A stretch of 7,248 bases of DNA, taken from IMG/VR virus record IMGVR_UViG_2671180417_000024; one strand, 5' to 3'. Below the pieces are notes generated by a model. That model had not been told where the DNA came from, made no database searches, and was given only the letters and a program-made list of their open reading frames with translations. Shown one piece after another: positions 236 through 7,248 of this stretch. The first letter of the stretch is position 1, and each line of letters begins with the position of its first letter. This stretch comes from a virus (taxonomy: Duplodnaviria; Heunggongvirae; Uroviricota; Caudoviricetes). The translations under genes and the position numbers were made by a program.

Positions 236-451
236 AACCGCAGCACGTTCCTGCATACGACGTGTCTGCGGCATAATCCCAATGATTACTCCCTGACAGG
301 GTTTGCAGGCCACTCAATATCAGGTGCAGTTGATGTATCAACACGATTCAACAATACCCGATATTTATTCCATGCCTCCAGCAACGATCTTTCTTCCTCC
401 GTTGCGATTTCCAGATCTACAGCATCCTGCAGTGGCGCAATATACTCACTG
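236..451. repeat. Direct repeat copy A (3' end of the tfa-like ORF plus a degenerate copy of the hairpin), about 90% identical to 1286-1500
   Basis: Same alignment as copy B. The hairpin copy here (242-275) has lost perfect symmetry: CCGCAGCACGT versus ACGTGTCTGCGG with a 1-bp insertion. Confidence 0.85.
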
Positions 452-555
452 AATTCCTGGATGTAGAACTGTGTGGTGACGGTCTTCCAGCCATTCGGCT
501 CCTGCTGTATCGAAGCATACCAGGCTATTTCAATATCGCTATGCTGCGGCAGCAT
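286..555 (-). CDS. Short Tfa-like protein: novel 35-aa N-terminus fused to a conserved tail-fibre-assembly C-terminal segment (possible tfa remnant or alternative mini-chaperone)
   Basis: 89-aa ORF with SD-like AAGGGG 4 nt upstream of the ATG. The C-terminal ~51 aa ([51 protein letters not shown]) differ from the tfa C-terminus at about 5 positions; the N-terminus [35 protein letters not shown] is unrelated to tfa. Confidence 0.55.
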
Positions 556-563
556 TTAACCCC

Positions 564-592
564 TTGTAATTCATCGCCATAATTGATTTAAT
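564..592 (+). promoter_or_regulatory. Candidate sigma-70 promoter for the methyltransferase gene
   Basis: -35 TTGTAA (564-569), 17-bp spacer, extended -10 TGaTTTAAT (584-592), in a 56-bp AT-rich divergent intergenic region. Predicted start site near 599-600. Confidence 0.3.
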
Positions 593-611
593 TCACAAAT
601 AAAACTATAAC

Positions 612-1280
612 ATGGTGAAATCAATGAAAAAAAACACAGATGATGGGGCTAAAATTTACACACCACTTACCCTAAAGCTTTATGACTGGTGGGTTTTGGG
701 AGTATCAAATCGGCTTGCATGGGGATGTCCTACAAAGGAACACCTTCTTCCACACTTTCTGGAACATGTAGGTAACAACCATCTGGATATTGGTGTTGGA
801 ACTGGGTTTTACCTTACTCACGTACCTGAGAGTAGTCTGATATCTTTAATGGATTTGAACGAAGCTAGCCTGAACGCGGCATCTACAAGGGCTGGGGAAT
901 CAAAAATTAAACATAAAATTAGCCATGATGTTTTTGAACCTTATCCCGCGGCGTTACATGGTCAATTTGATTCCATTTCCATGTTTTACCTTCTTCACTG
1001 CCTGCCTGGAAATATATCTACAAAAAGCTGTGTAATACGCAATGCGGCGCAGGCCTTAACTGACGATGGAACTCTATACGGAGCCACAATTCTTGGCGAT
1101 GGAGTTGTGCACAATAGCTTCGGTCAAAAACTGATGCGCATTTACAATCAGAAAGGCATCTTTTCAAACACAAAAGATTCCGAAGAAGGCTTAACACATA
1201 TACTCTCAGAGCATTTCGAGAATGTTAAAACCAAGGTTCAAGGTACTGTAGTAATGTTTTCCGCTTCAGGGAAAAAATAG
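612..1280 (+). CDS. Class I SAM-dependent methyltransferase, substrate unknown (horizontally acquired cargo gene / moron)
   Basis: 222-codon ORF on the opposite strand to the tail genes. Motif I LDIGVGTGFY (GxGxG), downstream acidic LMDLNE and FYLLHCLPGN fit a Rossmann-fold methyltransferase. No DPPY/NPPF or PC-Q DNA-methyltransferase motifs. Visibly AT-rich with rare E. coli codons (AGG, CTA, ATA, GGA). The ATG at 612 has no SD; the in-frame ATG at 624 is preceded by GGTGA (614-618) and may be the true start. Confidence 0.85.
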   Translation: MVKSMKKNTDDGAKIYTPLTLKLYDWWVLGVSNRLAWGCPTKEHLLPHFLEHVGNNHLDIGVGTGFYLTHVPESSLISLMDLNEASLNAASTRAGESKIKHKISHDVFEPYPAALHGQFDSISMFYLLHCLPGNISTKSCVIRNAAQALTDDGTLYGATILGDGVVHNSFGQKLMRIYNQKGIFSNTKDSEEGLTHILSEHFENVKTKVQGTVVMFSASGKK

Positions 1281-1285
1281 CATCC

Positions 1286-1500
1286 AACCGCAGCACGTTC
1301 TTGCTTAAGACGTGCTGCGGCATAATCCCAATGATTACTCCCTGACAGGGTTCGTAGGCCACTCAATATCAGGTGCAGTTGATGTATCAACACGGTTCAG
1401 CAACACCCGATACTTTTTCCAGGCTTCCAGCAATGAGGTTTCTTCCTCCGTTGCAATTTCCAGATCTGCAGCATCCTGAAGCGGCGCAATATGCTCACTG
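1286..1500. repeat. Direct repeat copy B (3' end of tfa plus downstream hairpin), about 90% identical to 236-451
   Basis: Manual alignment of 1286-1500 against 236-451 gave roughly 21 mismatches and one 1-bp indel over ~215 bp, in the same orientation. Confidence 0.85.
1288..1320. terminator. Perfect 11-bp inverted repeat hairpin between the convergent tfa and methyltransferase genes (candidate bidirectional terminator / recombination junction)
   Basis: CCGCAGCACGT (1288-1298) and ACGTGCTGCGG (1310-1320) are exact reverse complements, with an 11-nt loop containing CTTAAG. It sits 7 nt after the methyltransferase stop and 14 nt after the tfa stop. On the minus strand a U-run (UAUUUUUUC) follows only after a 9-nt gap; on the plus strand there is no U-run, so terminator function is uncertain. 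Confidence 0.5.
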
Positions 1501-1919
1501 GCTACCTGCATCAGGTTGTTTTTTGTTTCTTCCGCCTCCCGGATCCGGAACAGTTTTTCTGCTTCCGTATCCTTCACCCAGGCTGTGCCGTTCCACTTCT
1601 GAAACTCCCCTTCCGGCGATAACCAGGTAACATTTTCCGGTAACGGACCGAGTTCAGAAATAAATAACGCGTCGCCGGAAGCCACGTCATAAACCGTTTT
1701 ACCCCGATGGTCTTCAAAGAGATGCCACGATGACTCATCACTGTTGAAAACAGCCACGAAGCCTGCCGGAATATCTAACGGTGCAATATCGGTACTGTTT
1801 GCAGGCAGACCTGTATGAGGCGGAATATATGCGCCACCTTCACCAATAAATTCATTAGTTCCGGCCAGCAGATTATAAATTTTTATGGTCCGTGGTTGTT
1901 CACTCATTCTGAATGCCAT
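1335..1919 (-). CDS. tfa: Tail fibre assembly protein (chaperone) Tfa
   Basis: 194-aa [50 protein letters not shown]…WPTNPVRE is near-identical to lambda Tfa as I recall it. Its ATG overlaps the stf stop as TAATG (position 1919 is shared). Confidence 0.95.
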
Positions 1920-4900
1920 TATGCAAGCCTCACAATATAGTTAAATGCGATGTTTTTGACGGTGTTTTCCGCGTTACCAGCAGCGTTAACGGTGATGGTG
2001 TGTCCATGTGAACCAATCGCAACGGAGTGCGCATGAGCACCAATTGGAACAGAGTGCGCATGGTTACCTGTAGTGCTTGTGGCACCAGACCAGGTTCTGG
2101 AAGCGTTAAAGTTTACAGGAACACCATAAGTAAATTGAGAGCCCGTAAATCCATGGGCTGGCGCAGAGCCACCCAGTGTAAATGCTCCACTTGCTGTATA
2201 GAAATTACCGCTATCACTTCTGAAGTAACCGAGAGTACCGGTAATTTCCATAGTGCCTCGGCTGTGGTTATGGTCACCAGTGGCATTTGAAGACTTAGTA
2301 CCATAATCAAACGACGACGTGGTTTTCGTCCCCAAATCCGTACTGGATGCACTGGCGCTGTGGGTGTGCGATTTAATGCCGTCCTGTTCCTGAGATAATA
2401 CGGCTCGACCACTGGCAGGTTTGCCCTTAATCGTCCAGCCACGCATATCAGGGATCACGCCTGACGGATAAGCAGCTGCAAGTTTCGGGTAAGCAGATTT
2501 GTCAAAAGTCTGCCCCTGCATCAGAGCATAACCAGACGGAACGGTATCTGATGGCCACGGGATTGGTGCGCCGACTGGGTAGCTTTCTGGTGGAAGATTT
2601 TTCGAGGTATAAACTTCTGCCCAGTCTTCCTCAAAACCATAACCGTCTCTTGAAGAACGGTAGAACAGACCACGATTTCTGTAATGCGCCTTCATCTGCA
2701 GGGTCCGGCAACTTCCGACTCCGGTATAGAAGTTAACCAGAATATAGCTGTCGCCAGAGCGGGTGACATTGTAAGCGCCTGATTCGGCATTCCAGGGAAC
2801 GGCTCCATCCGAATCCGCATAAGCCCCCGTCGAACGTCGGGCAAATGCACCAATATTTTCCGGCGTGAGGTTAATATCCGCCGAGCCATCAAACTTAACA
2901 CCGTTAATTTTTGGGACTGCCGCAAGTTTCGTCGCGGTATCGGCGTTCCCCTTCAGTGCCCCGGTGATCCCATCAGTAACAGACAACGGACCTGAAATAG
3001 TCCCTCCAGTCGTTGGCAGCGCTCCAATATCTGATGGTGTAGGTTTCTGATGTGAGCTATACATCGTATAAACAACACCACCGGTAACGCTGGAAGGCTT
3101 ACTCGCTGAATATGTTGGCGAGGTATAAATAGAAACTGACGCATTTGTAGTACAATCCCAATGGATATTTACACTCGTCGCATAATTGCCAATCTCAACG
3201 TAAATATCATATGTATCGCCGGATGTGTTGATCCAGGCGAAATTCGTTAATCCGACGGCTGTACGCTTCCACAAAGCTCCGGTAATCCCTTTGGGCTTTC
3301 CATTGCCTGCTCGTAGAACCAGTTCTGAAATGCCTGCCTGCTGTGGGGAGCCGACGTTGTAACCAGCGTCACCAATCAATGCGATGTAAACGATGGAACT
3401 CGCTTGTGGCATGGTAACCGTTGCCAGTTTGAACCACCCTGCCCCGCCAGAGAAAGAGATCGTTACTGAATTTAAAGTGCCAATATCTTTCGGTGTTAAT
3501 GTTATATCCGCAGTCAGTGCTTTCCCGTTAACTTTTCGGTTAGATGGTACCCTGCCATTCGCATTGTCATTCGCTGCTTTAACTGCCTTCGGTGTCGCGG
3601 CAAGCGTTTCAGATGTGCTGTTGGTTGCACTGCTGAGCTGTACTATCCCCTTTTTCGTCGTACTTGCATCCTCAAGCGCCACGGCGGATGCAATATCCTC
3701 TGCCCGTTTTGCCGCTGTCTCGGCGCGCGTTGCCGCGGATTCCGCCGTACTTTTGCTCTGTGCTGCCGCCGTCGCACTGCCAGTTGCCTCTGTCGCCTTC
3801 GTGGATGCTGTCGTGGCGCTGCCCTTCGCTGCTGACGCCTGTCTGGTCGCCTCATCTTTTGAAGCTGACGCCGATGATGCCGATGACGCCGCCGAACTAG
3901 CGGACGATGCGGCAGCCGTTTTTGAGGATTCTGCGCTGGTTTCCGACGCTTTCGCGTTCGTCTCGGATGTCTTCGCTGCGGAAGCAGACCTCGCTGCTGC
4001 ACTGGCCTGTTCAGTGGCTTCGCCAGCCTTCGTTGTGGCTGTTGAAGCAGACGAGGCGGCACTTTCTGCCGACTTTCCGGCAGCGGTGGCACTGGCTGAG
4101 GCCTGCCCGGCACTTGTTGACGCGGCACTGGCAGATAATGCAGCCGCTGTTTTTGAACCTGCCGCAGCTGAGGCGCTCTGTTCCGCTGCCGTCTCAGAAG
4201 ACTTAGCGTTCGTCTCGGACGTTTTTGCCGCCTTCGCAGAATTTGCTGTCGCCGTTGCCGAGGAAGCTGCGCTGCTGGCGCTCGAGGATGCATTCGTTTC
4301 TGAAGATTTCGCTGCCTCTTTTGAGGCCGCCGCACCCCGTGCCGAGGTGGCAGCTTCTGACGCCTTCGTGGTCGCTGTGGATGCAGAAGTGGCTGCCGAT
4401 TTTTGTGATGCTGCGGCATTCGTTTCTGACGTTTTCGCGGCACTGGCGCTGGTAGCTGCCGCGCTTTTTGATGACTCTGCAGCAGCAGCACTTTTTGCTG
4501 CTTCACGGGCCTTTGTCGATGCCGTTCCTGCGCTGGAAGACGCTGACTGAGCCGACGACGCGGCCTGTCCGGCTGACGTGCTGGCGGCACGTGCTGAGGC
4601 TGCAGCATCGGTTGCATGAGTTGCCGCCTCGCTGGCTGATGCACTGGCATCGCTGGCTGATTTTTTCGCGGCTGCCGTATTCTGTGCAACCGCGGAGGCG
4701 TTACGTGACACCTCTTCCACCATCTGCTCAAAGCGGCGCAGTGCCTCCGGTCGGACATCATCCTCCGTCATGGCACCGAGAAAATCATTCAGCGTACCTG
4801 GTCTGGAACCTTCATAGACGGTAATGGTCCCGGCATGTGAAGGCGGAAAACCTTCAACCAGCAGGGTGACGCTGTACTGACCATACTCGACGTCCATGCT

Positions 4901-5047
4901 GTAACGCCCTGCCTCATCCGGATTTTCAGAGGCCACCGTGTTCACCACCACCGTGCTGCTGGTTCGTCTGGCCTTCAGCACAATGGTGCAGTTCTGTACT
5001 GGTTTTCCTGTGCCATCTTTAAGCACGCCAGAAATTTTTACTGTCAT
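1919..5047 (-). CDS. stf: Side tail fibre protein (lambda Stf-like; mosaic with Ala/Ser-rich repeat shaft, phage-fibre repeat motifs and a T4 gp37-like HxH tip)
   Basis: 1042-aa ORF with SD GGTGGA 6 nt upstream of the ATG. N-terminus [28 protein letters not shown]…[14 protein letters not shown]…[13 protein letters not shown] matches the lambda Stf N-terminus as I recall it. Also present: conserved [24 protein letters not shown] motif and C-terminal GAPIPWPSD…[35 protein letters not shown]…[31 protein letters not shown]. Confidence 0.95.
3640..4710. repeat. Low-complexity, GC-rich coding repeats inside stf (Ala/Ser/Thr-rich shaft with recurring A-A-K-T/S-S-E-T-N-A units)
   Basis: Stf residues ~115-470 are almost entirely A/S/T/K/E, with the motif KTSETNA or KSSETNA occurring four times. 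The DNA shows recurring near-identical segments (e.g. ttcgtctcggatgtcttcgc, ttcgtctcggacgtttttgc, ttcgtttctgacgttttcgc). This is why long spurious ORFs open in several other frames here. Confidence 0.6.
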
Positions 5048-5198: not shown

Positions 5199-5798
5199 TC
5201 AGAAACGGTATCCGATACCAACAATAAATGCATCCGTTCGCCAGTCGCCACTGCCGGAGCCTTCATAAGCAATATCAATGGCCACGGATTCGGTCGGGTT
5301 AAACTGCACGCCAGCCCCCCACGCCAGAGACGTGTTGCTGTGGCGACCGTCATCACTTCCGGTCAGCACATCGTGCGTTTTCCCCTTGTTGTCAGTTACG
5401 CGGAGATAATCCCCGGAGAAAGTCGACACACGGCTGTAAGCCACACCCGCCATCGAATACGCGCTGAACCATTCATTCACGCGTACAGACGGCCCCGCCA
5501 TCACGCTGAACCAGCGGTTACGCACGGAATCTTCATGCCAGCGGGTATCGCTGTAATGCGTTTTTTGCTCATCTTTGGCATTGGCATAACTGAATGACGT
5601 CACCAGCCCCAGCGTGTCCGTAAATTCATAACGGTATTTCACGTTAATGCCCTTCAGGTCATCACTGCCTGGCATATCAGTATGGGTCTGAAGATACCCG
5701 GCGCTTAGTGTGGACTGATGCTCTGCTGCGCTCGCTGGCGTACCAGCGGCAACCAGCCAGACTACTGCGGACAGAATAACAGCACATAATTTACGCAT
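5199..5798 (-). CDS. lom: Lom-like outer membrane protein (Ail/Lom/OmpX/PagC family beta-barrel), with N-terminal signal peptide
   Basis: 199-aa ORF. N-terminus MRKLCAVILSAVVWLVAAGTPASA/AE looks like a Sec signal peptide. GINVKYRYE and the C-terminal AYEGSGSGDWRTDAFIVGIGYRF with terminal aromatic residue match lambda Lom as I recall it. SD GAGG lies 6 nt upstream of the ATG. Position directly downstream of J is as in lambda. Confidence 0.92.
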   Translation of the reverse strand: MRKLCAVILSAVVWLVAAGTPASAAEHQSTLSAGYLQTHTDMPGSDDLKGINVKYRYEFTDTLGLVTSFSYANAKDEQKTHYSDTRWHEDSVRNRWFSVMAGPSVRVNEWFSAYSMAGVAYSRVSTFSGDYLRVTDNKGKTHDVLTGSDDGRHSNTSLAWGAGVQFNPTESVAIDIAYEGSGSGDWRTDAFIVGIGYRF

Positions 5799-5865: not shown

Positions 5866-7248
5866 TCAGCTGATACTGATGCCTGCGGTGGCTTTCTTCA
5901 TCACCACAACCAGCAAATCGCTGATACTTGCTGTGGGATACCAGTTATTCACCAGCCATGCTGACACCGAAAACTCCAGCGTCATGTGACCGTGACCGGC
6001 AGGCATATCAATAACACCACTGTAAATCAGCGTATTATCCAGCGCGGTACGGTTATAAATTTCAGCACCGTTTTTCCGCACTATCAGACGGCATGAGGAG
6101 TAAATATCAGTATGCTCTCTCTCATGCTTAGCGCCACTGAATGCCACCGCCGGAATAACAATTTGCCGGTCAAACGGCTGATCGTCATAAACCCTGACGG
6201 TAATGGTCCCTGATGGCCACCGCTCCGGTGCACGGGAGTCCCGGGGGAAAGCTTTGCCCACTGTTTTAACGAGATCGCCTTCAATCTGGTTGGCGGACAG
6301 TTTTCCCAGAACCCGACAGTTCTCGTTAATCGTGACGTTGTTGAGCGTCCCGGAGTTCGCATTCACGTTACCGCTGATATCGGCATTTTTCGCCATCAGC
6401 CGCCCGTCCGGTGTCAGGGAAAATGCCGGAGGATTACCGCCGCTGGTAATGGTGGGAGCCGTCAGGTATTTCAGGAACACTTCGTTCATGAATATCTGAT
6501 CGCCCTGACCAACAAACATCGGCTTTGTGTTGCCATTCGCAGGATTAATCATCGCAATCCGGTCAGCAGCCAGAAGCACCTGACTCTGCATACCTGCTGG
6601 CGTATTCTCAATACCGGCTCCGATACCCGCAATATAAAGGCGTCCGTCCTTCATCTGCTGCAGTTTCACGGCCCACATGCTGTTCAGGTTATTATTTGTA
6701 TCAACCTGAACTTTCTGTATCTGCTGGATTGCCGCACTCTGGTCTTCCAGTTTTTTATTGACGGTCTGCGTGATTTCATTGCTGACATTCGTAATGGACG
6801 TCCTGATTTCAGCCAGGTCCGGCGCAAGCTGACCGTTATCAATCTGCGTCCACAGCTCCTGAGCCAGATGTGTTTTCCCGATTTCTCCTTTGAAAAAATC
6901 CAGGTAACCTTCCGCATCATCGCTCGCCCGACCGACAGCCTCCACGAATGCCGATTTGCCAACAGTATTCACACTGCGGATATAAAAATAATAATCATGG
7001 CCCGGTTTGATATTGATACTGGCAGCTATCCAGTACAGCGCCGAGCCAAGATAGCGGGCTGCGGTTTCAACCTGCCTGATATCCGCAATCCGCTTTTCCG
7101 AGAACCAGAACTCAAACTGTACCGTCGGGTCATAAACGGCAAGATGTGGCGTTGCGGTTATCTGAAAATAGCCCGGCGTCAGCTCAATCGTGGCGGGTAC
7201 CGCAGGTGCATTAATCCTGAACGTGGTGGTGGCCGGTTCCCCCTGCTG
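5866..7248 (-). CDS. J: Tail tip host-specificity protein J, C-terminal part (5' end of the gene lies beyond the right edge of the window)
   Basis: The minus-strand frame is open from 7248 down to the stop at 5866; I checked codon by codon that 6973-7248 has no in-frame stop, so the GTG at 6972 in the ORF track is not the real start. The translation (…[26 protein letters not shown]…[44 protein letters not shown]…) matches the lambda J protein as I recall it. Confidence 0.93.

Follow-up and report, generated by a model that had tools for sequence, protein, structure and literature searches.

The window analyzed here, a 7,248-nucleotide (nt) stretch of the IMG/VR virus record IMGVR_UViG_2671180417_000024, is the tail end of a lambdoid prophage shown on its reverse strand. 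On the plus strand at 612–1280 it carries an open reading frame (ORF) of 222 amino acids (aa) that faces J, lom, stf, and tfa, all of which lie on the minus strand. A first-pass annotation made from the letters alone had described this ORF as a methyltransferase gene of about 220 aa running opposite to the tail operon, and this description holds: the translation contains LDIGVGTGFY (residues 58 to 67) and LMDLNE (residues 79 to 84; numbering of the 222-aa form), and Pfam Methyltransf_12 matches at 37.5 bits against a cutoff of 30. The gene had been treated as unrecognized, however, and this was mistaken. Judged from its sequence, the ORF is an intact ortholog of Escherichia coli K-12 ybcY (b0562) and is already named and annotated as RefSeq WP_000240999.1, "class I SAM-dependent methyltransferase" (SAM, S-adenosylmethionine). 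That accession is annotated on identical DNA in strain ATCC 11775, the annotation of phage PhiR26_1 names the gene "YbcY," and the protein is 100% identical to a cluster of 6589 members.

The K-12 copy provides the closest comparison. In the DLP12 cryptic prophage of K-12 MG1655 the order is tfaD-ybcY-tfaX-appY-ompT, with ybcY (b0562) a convergent pseudogene, and window positions 309–1773 align with the tfaX-ybcY-tfaD segment of NC_000913 at 96.8% identity in the same gene order. DLP12 and the window therefore have the same tfaD-ybcY-tfaX layout, along with the same promoter sequence, but differ in what lies beyond: K-12 ybcY is upstream of appY and ompT, whereas the window gene belongs to a prophage with a complete J-lom-stf-tfa set, near an end that abuts ompW in ATCC 11775. 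The two ybcY copies are 98.8% identical over 777 nt, separated by 7 mismatches and by a 2-bp deletion in K-12 that removes the equivalent of the ATG at 624 and leaves the remaining frame open; the window copy is intact. The deletion is at the edge of a run of eight adenines that directly follows ATG 624 (624–633: ATGAAAAAAAAC), and inactivation may recur at this homopolymer. K-12 thus carries a natural null allele, which eases complementation with an intact gene.

The same comparison of alleles bears on the start codon. ATG 624 is kept in all aligned alleles, and a Shine-Dalgarno-like GGTGA, read from the sequence at 614–618 on the plus strand, 5 nt upstream of ATG 624, is kept in five of six (GATGA in the sixth, L091). 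ATG 612, the start of the longest ORF, lacks conservation in other alleles and was rejected as a start codon. Because ATG 624 and GGTGA are conserved and ATG 612 is not, the coding sequence most likely runs from 624 to 1280 and encodes 218 aa plus a stop, which settles the originally proposed range of 218 to 222 aa at its lower end. The 218 positions of phrog_2132 align to residues 5 to 222 (E = 4e-157), in agreement with a 218-aa protein, and the homologues agree with this length too.

In E. coli, the gene is widespread. DNA of 556–1334 was found at at least 95% identity in 3838 of 5426 complete genomes (71%; median, 1 copy; maximum, 4), often within a fixed cryptic prophage. A 70-nt probe of the 5′ end matched 3247 genomes, 1019 of them at 99% or more (100% in the matches listed) and 1848 at 95 to 99%; the 90 to 95% identity band that contains K-12 held 381 genomes (12%), and 2867 of the 3247 fell outside it, which suggests that most E. 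coli copies have an intact 5′ end. As a discovery, then, the locus carries little weight: ybcY is named, thousands of genomes carry its annotation, and its place at the tail fibers of DLP12 and lambdoid prophages is on record. Its interest lies in biochemistry: about 71% of complete E. coli genomes have this orphan methyltransferase gene, which is kept under purifying selection and carried in a mobile unit of about 735 bp. We consider ybcY a reasonable but ordinary candidate for enzyme deorphanization rather than a new kind of system.

Near-identical copies in viral contigs lie next to tail-fiber assembly sequences, and the presence of the gene varies across related phages. Among 80 IMG/VR prophage contigs with a 99 to 100% identical gene, the left neighbor was a tfa fragment in all 79 that had enough sequence; on the right, 48 contigs had a full convergent tfa and 23 a partial one, and 9 had no neighbor within 400 nt. 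The gene was usually 0.3 to 1.3 kb from the contig end. Of 50,697 phage records, only 17 matched, with differing right-hand neighbors; in 14 of these, from sequenced temperate phages such as 2G7b, ev243, PhiR26_1, Turner, and Kati, the match covered at least 80% of the query and identity was 98.8% or higher. The order in sequenced phages was a variable tail-fiber module followed by ybcY, tfaX, an alpha/beta hydrolase gene, ompT, and int. About 954 genomes have the left flank of this window, and about 832 have the K-12 tfaX-appY junction. In ATCC 11775 the prophage end adjoins a truncated ompW beside the trp operon, so that ybcY is the last intact gene before the junction. In three loci from E. 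coli and Shigella flexneri (L012, L014, and L015), a 99%-identical gene was followed about 320 nt downstream by an ORF that, as read from its translation, resembles an IpaH-type leucine-rich repeat protein, a different cargo on the side held by tfa in this window. Escherichia albertii NBRC 107761 carried a 100%-identical, phage-type allele together with a 64%-identical paralogue on another contig (L011 and L020), so the two lineages coexist.

Both immediate neighbors of ybcY in the window are tfa sequences. To its right lies a complete, convergent tfa of 194 aa (1335–1919, minus strand; Pfam Caudo_TAP, E = 2e-44), which has the same annotation in the prophage of ATCC 11775. To its left, and divergent from it, lies a tfaX-like ORF of 89 aa (286–555, minus strand), which matches phrog_2341 over its full length and Caudo_TAP at profile positions 75 to 130 only; it consists of the C-terminal tail-fiber-assembly domain behind a different 30-aa N terminus. 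The constant unit across prophages is ybcY with tfaX, while the tail-fiber genes upstream are exchanged, and this exchange explains a direct repeat of about 227 nt on either side of the gene. The left copy (236–462) holds the 3′ end of the tfaX-like fragment and a hairpin at 238–271; in the right copy (1286–1511), that hairpin recurs at 1288–1320 alongside the tfa 3′ end. The copies were found as repeat families D1 and D2 (spacing, 1049/1050) and are about 89 to 90% identical. The first-pass annotation overlooked this duplication and, as a result, assigned the hairpin to the methyltransferase gene, which was said to end at it. The hairpin itself is strong, with an 11-bp perfect stem and 3 further pairs (−23.9 kcal/mol; z = −5.9; none of 200 shuffled sequences as stable), and it is common to the two convergent genes. 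It is, however, part of the tfa repeat and outside the homology of the cassette, which ends at 1286–1293 there, and we rejected it as the methyltransferase gene's own terminator. No U-tract follows it on the plus strand, and a terminator scan made no call.

Base composition sets ybcY apart from its surroundings, as had been claimed. Its G+C content is 41.1% (35.9% at third codon positions), below that of all other 669-nt segments outside 556–1334 (at least 46.5%; mean, 52.6%), so that the computed value is indeed distinct from those of the flanking phage genes. The flanks are nevertheless less G+C rich than the "well over 50%" first judged by eye, at 48.4% for tfa, 51.2% for J, and 53.9% for stf. 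An excess of rare codons is likewise present but modest (7.2% in ybcY versus 2.0 to 5.7% in tfa, stf, lom, and J).

The boundaries of the foreign segment follow from related alleles (79 to 90% protein identity and 75 to 92% nucleotide identity) found in unrelated settings. A Citrobacter allele adjoins dinI, a gene often carried by prophages; others are on a Salmonella plasmid-like contig with CcdAB/KfrA, on an insertion sequence (IS)-flanked contig from a sequencing-run assembly, and beside perC and an autotransporter gene. DNA homology between alleles from unrelated contexts and the window begins at 555–583 and ends at 1276–1293. Aligned in this way, the mobile unit is about 735 bp of promoter, Shine-Dalgarno sequence, and ORF, ending at the foot of the tfa hairpin, with about 69 nt upstream moving with the ORF. 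Because alleles in unrelated contexts have only about 555–1290 in common, this unit can be regarded as a one-gene moron, and the proposal of foreign cargo near the tail fibers stands, supported by the deviant composition and by right-hand neighbors that vary between phages. An 84%-identical allele in an E. coli assembly and a metagenome contig (L097 and L098) was situated between a tannase gene and a cluster encoding TetR, a Methyltransf_3 protein (catechol-type O-methyltransferase), and an esterase. This island is the only setting that hints at a class of substrate, plant phenolics, and it is a single occurrence. Across all of these settings the alleles keep a G+C content of about 40%, compared with 44 to 51% in their flanks.

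Comparison with known morons, such as lom and bor or effector and ompT cargo, places ybcY among them in several respects. Like them, it is a single gene of deviant composition with a candidate promoter of its own, lies between the late genes and the attachment site (att), is predicted to be transcribed independently of the late operon, and varies in presence among related phages. Unlike lom, bor, or effector morons, its product is a cytoplasmic enzyme and not a secreted effector or a protein of the envelope, and its cassette, unlike lom/bor-type morons, is also found on plasmid-like contigs and IS-flanked islands. Nor, unlike typical morons, does it have its own terminator, borrowing the tfa hairpin instead. 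The earlier designation as a moron thus stands for a unit that is autonomous by conservation and composition, but with a terminator borrowed from tfa.

The promoter region that travels with ybcY (555–611, plus strand) contains two sigma-70 candidates, both conserved: P1 (TTAACC-16-CATAAT, 556–583), from a promoter scan, and P2 (TTGATT-17-TATAAC, 583–611), which is identical to the predicted promoter of K-12 ybcY. Genomic systematic evolution of ligands by exponential enrichment (SELEX) showed that the K-12 ybcY/tfaX spacer is bound by RpoD holoenzyme, and the same study, whose predicted ybcY promoter is P2, flagged the spacer as H-NS bound (Shimada et al., PMC3946193). Promoter-like matches were no commoner than in shuffled sequence (3 found versus 3.9 expected). 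Support for the candidate promoter noted earlier comes from conservation across contexts and from in vitro RpoD SELEX in K-12, not from the frequency of motifs. For K-12, a microarray study with the c0651 probe reported that the ybcY signal changed (PMC4778652). An Rfam scan of 556–1334 yielded no RNA element at the gathering score, with CssrB and mir-875 as subthreshold matches.

Whether the gene is maintained for a function can be judged from its alleles. Homologous alleles compared with the window allele gave ratios of nonsynonymous to synonymous substitution (dN/dS) of 0.10 to 0.21, and ybcY is under purifying selection. A silent hitchhiker, kept in the recombination-prone tail-fiber region, silenced by H-NS, and without current benefit, would be in keeping with the K-12 pseudogene, with the approximately 12% of 5′-probe-matched genomes in the identity band of the K-12 lesion, with H-NS binding to the promoter spacer, and with a position between direct repeats left by tail-fiber module exchange. 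Yet the low dN/dS is between alleles that moved independently, most copies are intact, promoter and Shine-Dalgarno sequence are conserved with the ORF across contexts, and the gene is kept in 71% of genomes even though the direct repeats could delete it. We therefore give passive carriage only a slim chance.

Outside phages, many Gammaproteobacteria have native, single-gene homologues. Relatives at 51 to 68% identity are single chromosomal genes in nonphage contexts in Enterobacter and Salmonella, and single genes without a recurring phage neighbor occur in Yersinia, Erwinia, Pantoea, Proteus, Pasteurellaceae, the Pseudomonas syringae group, Xanthomonadales, and Oxalobacteraceae. In all, there are 527 Genome Taxonomy Database (GTDB) loci, and clustering at 50% gives 1326 representatives. 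The G+C content of the homologue matches that of its flanks in Pseudomonas, Yersinia, Proteus, and Salmonella, whereas E. coli, Citrobacter, Enterobacter, and Klebsiella alleles have 35 to 44% G+C in flanks of 42 to 51%. In these prophages ybcY is thus a functional gene acquired from outside.

The neighborhoods of 80 GTDB loci contained no partner gene conserved across genera, and for this reason the product is best regarded as a stand-alone enzyme. Neighbors recurred within genera, as read from sequence without a hidden Markov model (HMM) check: crotonase-like and CorA-like genes in Pseudomonas, an OmpW-like gene in Pasteurellaceae, and a small ORF in Proteus. These are not plausibly operonic with the homologue and have no common pathway theme. 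In three Pasteurellaceae species (L038, L044, and L048) the OmpW-family-like gene follows the YbcY homologue on the same strand, and the ybcY prophage of ATCC 11775 ends at the truncated ompW (11017–11142 of locus L001); the proximity of ompW in both is probably a coincidence of integration site. Among distant homologues, one is fused to a cytochrome P450 and one to RCC1, and other N-terminal extensions had no Pfam match.

The product has the features of a class I SAM-dependent methyltransferase. In addition to the above-threshold HMM match, it has a glycine-rich motif I, DIGVGTG (residues 59 to 65), and an acidic residue at the end of strand beta2, D81 in LMDLN, both invariant in 30 homologues, together with a seven-stranded Rossmann-like fold. 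An AlphaFold2 (AF2) model (pLDDT, 90.5; pTM, 0.87) shows a class I catalytic domain with no addition other than a helical lid at the N terminus, residues 1 to 14 being disordered. The best structural matches by Foldseek were PmtA, JHAMT, and phosphoethanolamine N-methyltransferases (PfPMT), with TM scores of 0.55 to 0.67, and a search of a viral structure library returned nothing specific. In a comparison of the family profile with the Protein Data Bank (PDB), JHAMT was best (E = 4e-6), followed by UbiG (E = 8e-4).

The initial conclusion that catalytic motifs of DNA methyltransferases are absent was confirmed by regular-expression searches of the protein, which found no [DNS]PP[YFWH] and no PC[QK], and a lone ENV at residue 199 without a PCQ partner. 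No DNA-methyltransferase Pfam family matched, and the AF2 model has no target-recognition domain. Phage DNA methyltransferases (Dam-like N6A, N4C, and C5 enzymes; antirestriction) are, like YbcY, phage borne and SAM dependent with a Rossmann-type fold; YbcY lacks their (D/N/S)PP(Y/F) or PCQ motif and their target-recognition domain, and on this evidence we do not regard it as a DNA methyltransferase.

Several features point instead to a small molecule as the substrate. JHAMT catalysis uses a Gln/His pair, formed by an N-terminal Gln and the His of a post-beta4 LHW motif (PMC8526772). In the profile alignment, the invariant His129 of YbcY, in the post-beta4 sequence LLHCL, coincides with the JHAMT catalytic His. 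Further invariant residues are Y24, D25, W26, W27, N33, C39, H105, D106, C130, H167, N168, and the segment YNxKGIFSN, and so many invariant polar residues suggest a specific pocket. YbcY has the same fold, SAM-binding motifs, and LH(W/C) motif as O-methyltransferases of the JHAMT/UbiG/Tam type (Methyltransf_11/12/23/25), but identity to them is only 15 to 21%, and the YbcY family, unlike them, has an invariant N-terminal lid (YDWWVL...N..AW.C) and extra invariant residues of its own. Fold, profile, His129, invariant residues, and the P450 fusion together favor small-molecule methylation.

Two other kinds of substrate were weighed against these data. The methyl acceptor could be a macromolecule, such as a nucleotide in rRNA or tRNA or a protein of the host or the phage, and its modification would then alter translation, antibiotic susceptibility, or phage-host interaction. 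We consider this unlikely, although it deserves consideration: the best profile matches are the small-molecule enzymes JHAMT and UbiG, the 218-aa catalytic domain and its lid carry no RNA-binding or other extra domain, no RNA-methyltransferase family of Pfam or NCBIfam matched, and one relative is fused to a P450. Alternatively, YbcY could be a PmtA-like phosphatidylethanolamine N-methyltransferase that remodels the membrane of the lysogen. The top Foldseek match is bacterial PmtA (8ys9), of similar size (207 aa); there are weak profile matches to PmtA, to phosphoethanolamine N-methyltransferase, and to NCBIfam PLipidMtase_Leg; and an Erwinia plasmid copy adjoins a choline transporter gene. 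These matches are slight, with E = 0.063 for the PDB profile of 8ys9 and 15.7 bits against a cutoff of 390 for the PmtA equivalog NF045882, and NCBIfam gave only subthreshold matches, to CpaM, RquA, and PmtA. Of the readings discussed here, membrane remodeling strikes us as the most improbable.

Taken together, these results are probably best explained by a self-contained, one-gene moron at about 555–1290 that carries an intact ybcY with its own promoter or promoters and encodes a small-molecule methyltransferase of benefit to the host. In this model, the cassette occupies a place between the tail-fiber genes and the prophage end, and because it has its own sigma-70 promoter(s) and Shine-Dalgarno sequence, a lysogen could transcribe ybcY independently of, and opposite to, the late tail operon. 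The product would be a soluble 218-aa class I SAM-dependent methyltransferase whose most likely methyl acceptor is not DNA but an O, N, or S atom in a small molecule, either a metabolite or a xenobiotic, with His129 of the LLHCL loop as probable anchor or base, as in JHAMT-type enzymes. Any benefit would go to the host, as lysogenic conversion, and not to virion assembly.

Several observations weigh against this explanation. Transcription from P2 would start at about 618, inside the Shine-Dalgarno sequence, and therefore, unless P1 is the promoter in use, the mRNA would have almost no leader. Since ybcY is AT rich, it is a target for H-NS silencing, and H-NS binding in K-12 may mean that the gene is silent under laboratory conditions. 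No equivalent of the JHAMT Gln was identified in YbcY, for which the invariant N33 is a candidate only. Finally, a ybcY mutant was like the wild type in the one assay that we found (PMC2408971), and no ybcY phenotype was reported in the literature found. Literature searches gave no match for WP_000240999 and found ybcY only in lists, and no functional study was found under c0651, ECOR-phage, pLVPK, or pEA29.

The first-pass annotation had also put forward a role in defense or antidefense, in which the methylation of an immune signaling molecule or of a phage component would shield the lysogen from superinfection or the phage from host immunity. The b region beside the tail fibers of lambdoid phages hosts exclusion and host-benefit genes, and the gene has spread widely on mobile elements. 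The only match in PADLOC-DB v2, however, was to mad2 (12.9 bits; E = 0.009), over the generic methyltransferase core. The neighbors are tail-fiber genes and fragments, with no nuclease or effector partner, and DNA-methyltransferase motifs are absent. Moreover, homologues in Enterobacter, Salmonella, Pseudomonas, Yersinia, and Proteus are native, nonmobile, single genes, and we accordingly hold a defense function to be very unlikely.

Relatives of ybcY occur on several virulence-associated mobile elements. By tblastn of PLSDB, the family was present on 761 plasmids, 603 of them from Klebsiella, where the homologues were 64 to 66% identical among the matches listed and often present in two copies. 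On the one IncFIB/IncHI1B hypervirulence plasmid inspected, the homologue was IS flanked and 1 to 3 kb from rmpD, rmpC, and peg-344. Like ybcY, it is a lone AT-rich gene on a mobile element; unlike ybcY, it is plasmid borne, IS flanked, and unrelated to phage tails. By synteny, that is, by gene order only, the Klebsiella homologue (WP_011251259.1) corresponds to BAH65943.1, the "putative SAM-dependent methyltransferase" encoded beside rmpA in pK2044; published reports describe the latter as a liver-abscess-associated marker and include no functional work (PMC5126061, PMC9372168). In K. pneumoniae pWSCRKP-1 (L179), a distance of about 9 kb separates two genes for class I SAM methyltransferases (8995–9648 and 18082–18645), one of which is the YbcY homologue 1 to 3 kb from rmpD, rmpC, and peg-344, and the records of many such plasmids match at two places. 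A 28-kb pEA29-type plasmid of Erwinia amylovora also has a family member, which adjoins the choline transporter gene, as does P. equi pVAPN have one.

This distribution allows a more speculative reading, to which we attach little probability, that the YbcY family is a single-enzyme protective module passed by mobile elements between host-associated bacteria and methylating one specific small molecule. Its bearers would be the E. coli prophages, the Klebsiella hypervirulence plasmid, the Erwinia pEA29-type plasmids, and P. equi pVAPN, and candidate targets, to be neutralized or disguised, would include a toxin or antimicrobial of the host or a competitor, or an immune signaling molecule in phage-host conflict. 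If true, this would be a new kind of lysogenic-conversion or defense/counterdefense activity.

The remainder of the window is occupied by prophage tail genes on the minus strand. The C terminus of J is at 5866–6972, lom (Ail/Lom family) is between J and stf at 5199–5798, stf is at 1919–5047, and a DUF4376 tail-fiber-like gene fragment at 1–282, with tail-fiber matches in PHROG and listed in RefSeq as a pseudogene, is the final feature before the prophage end, which abuts the truncated ompW in strain ATCC 11775. In each copy of the tfa 3′ repeat, inside tfa-type coding sequences and on the coding strand, there is a match to RF02111 of Rfam ("IS009," type "Gene"), at 1378–1576 (minus strand; 225 bits; gathering score, 117) and at 329–532 (minus strand; 112.5 bits, just below the gathering score); what this family models may be no more than the conserved tfa 3′ end of prophages, as opposed to a distinct RNA. 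A RefSeq 45-aa "hypothetical protein," WP_001309429.1, at 1225–1362 on the minus strand (12670–12807 of L001), is antisense to the 3′ end of ybcY and spans the hairpin; it is very probably a spurious gene call. The lom gene, a classical lambda moron, is not deviant in composition here (53.8% G+C), unlike ybcY. The central region of stf (about 3600–4800, minus strand) is rich in Ala, Ser, and Thr, is of low complexity, has 58 to 62% G+C with AT skew to −0.45, and gives two long spurious ORFs (opposite strand, 385 aa; another frame, 372 aa). At 1997–2050 (minus strand), the C-terminal coding region of stf contains a 27-nt tandem repeat (74% identity) with a repeated His-x-His stretch, which presumably resembles the metal-binding HxH repeats of phage fiber tips such as that of T4 gp37.

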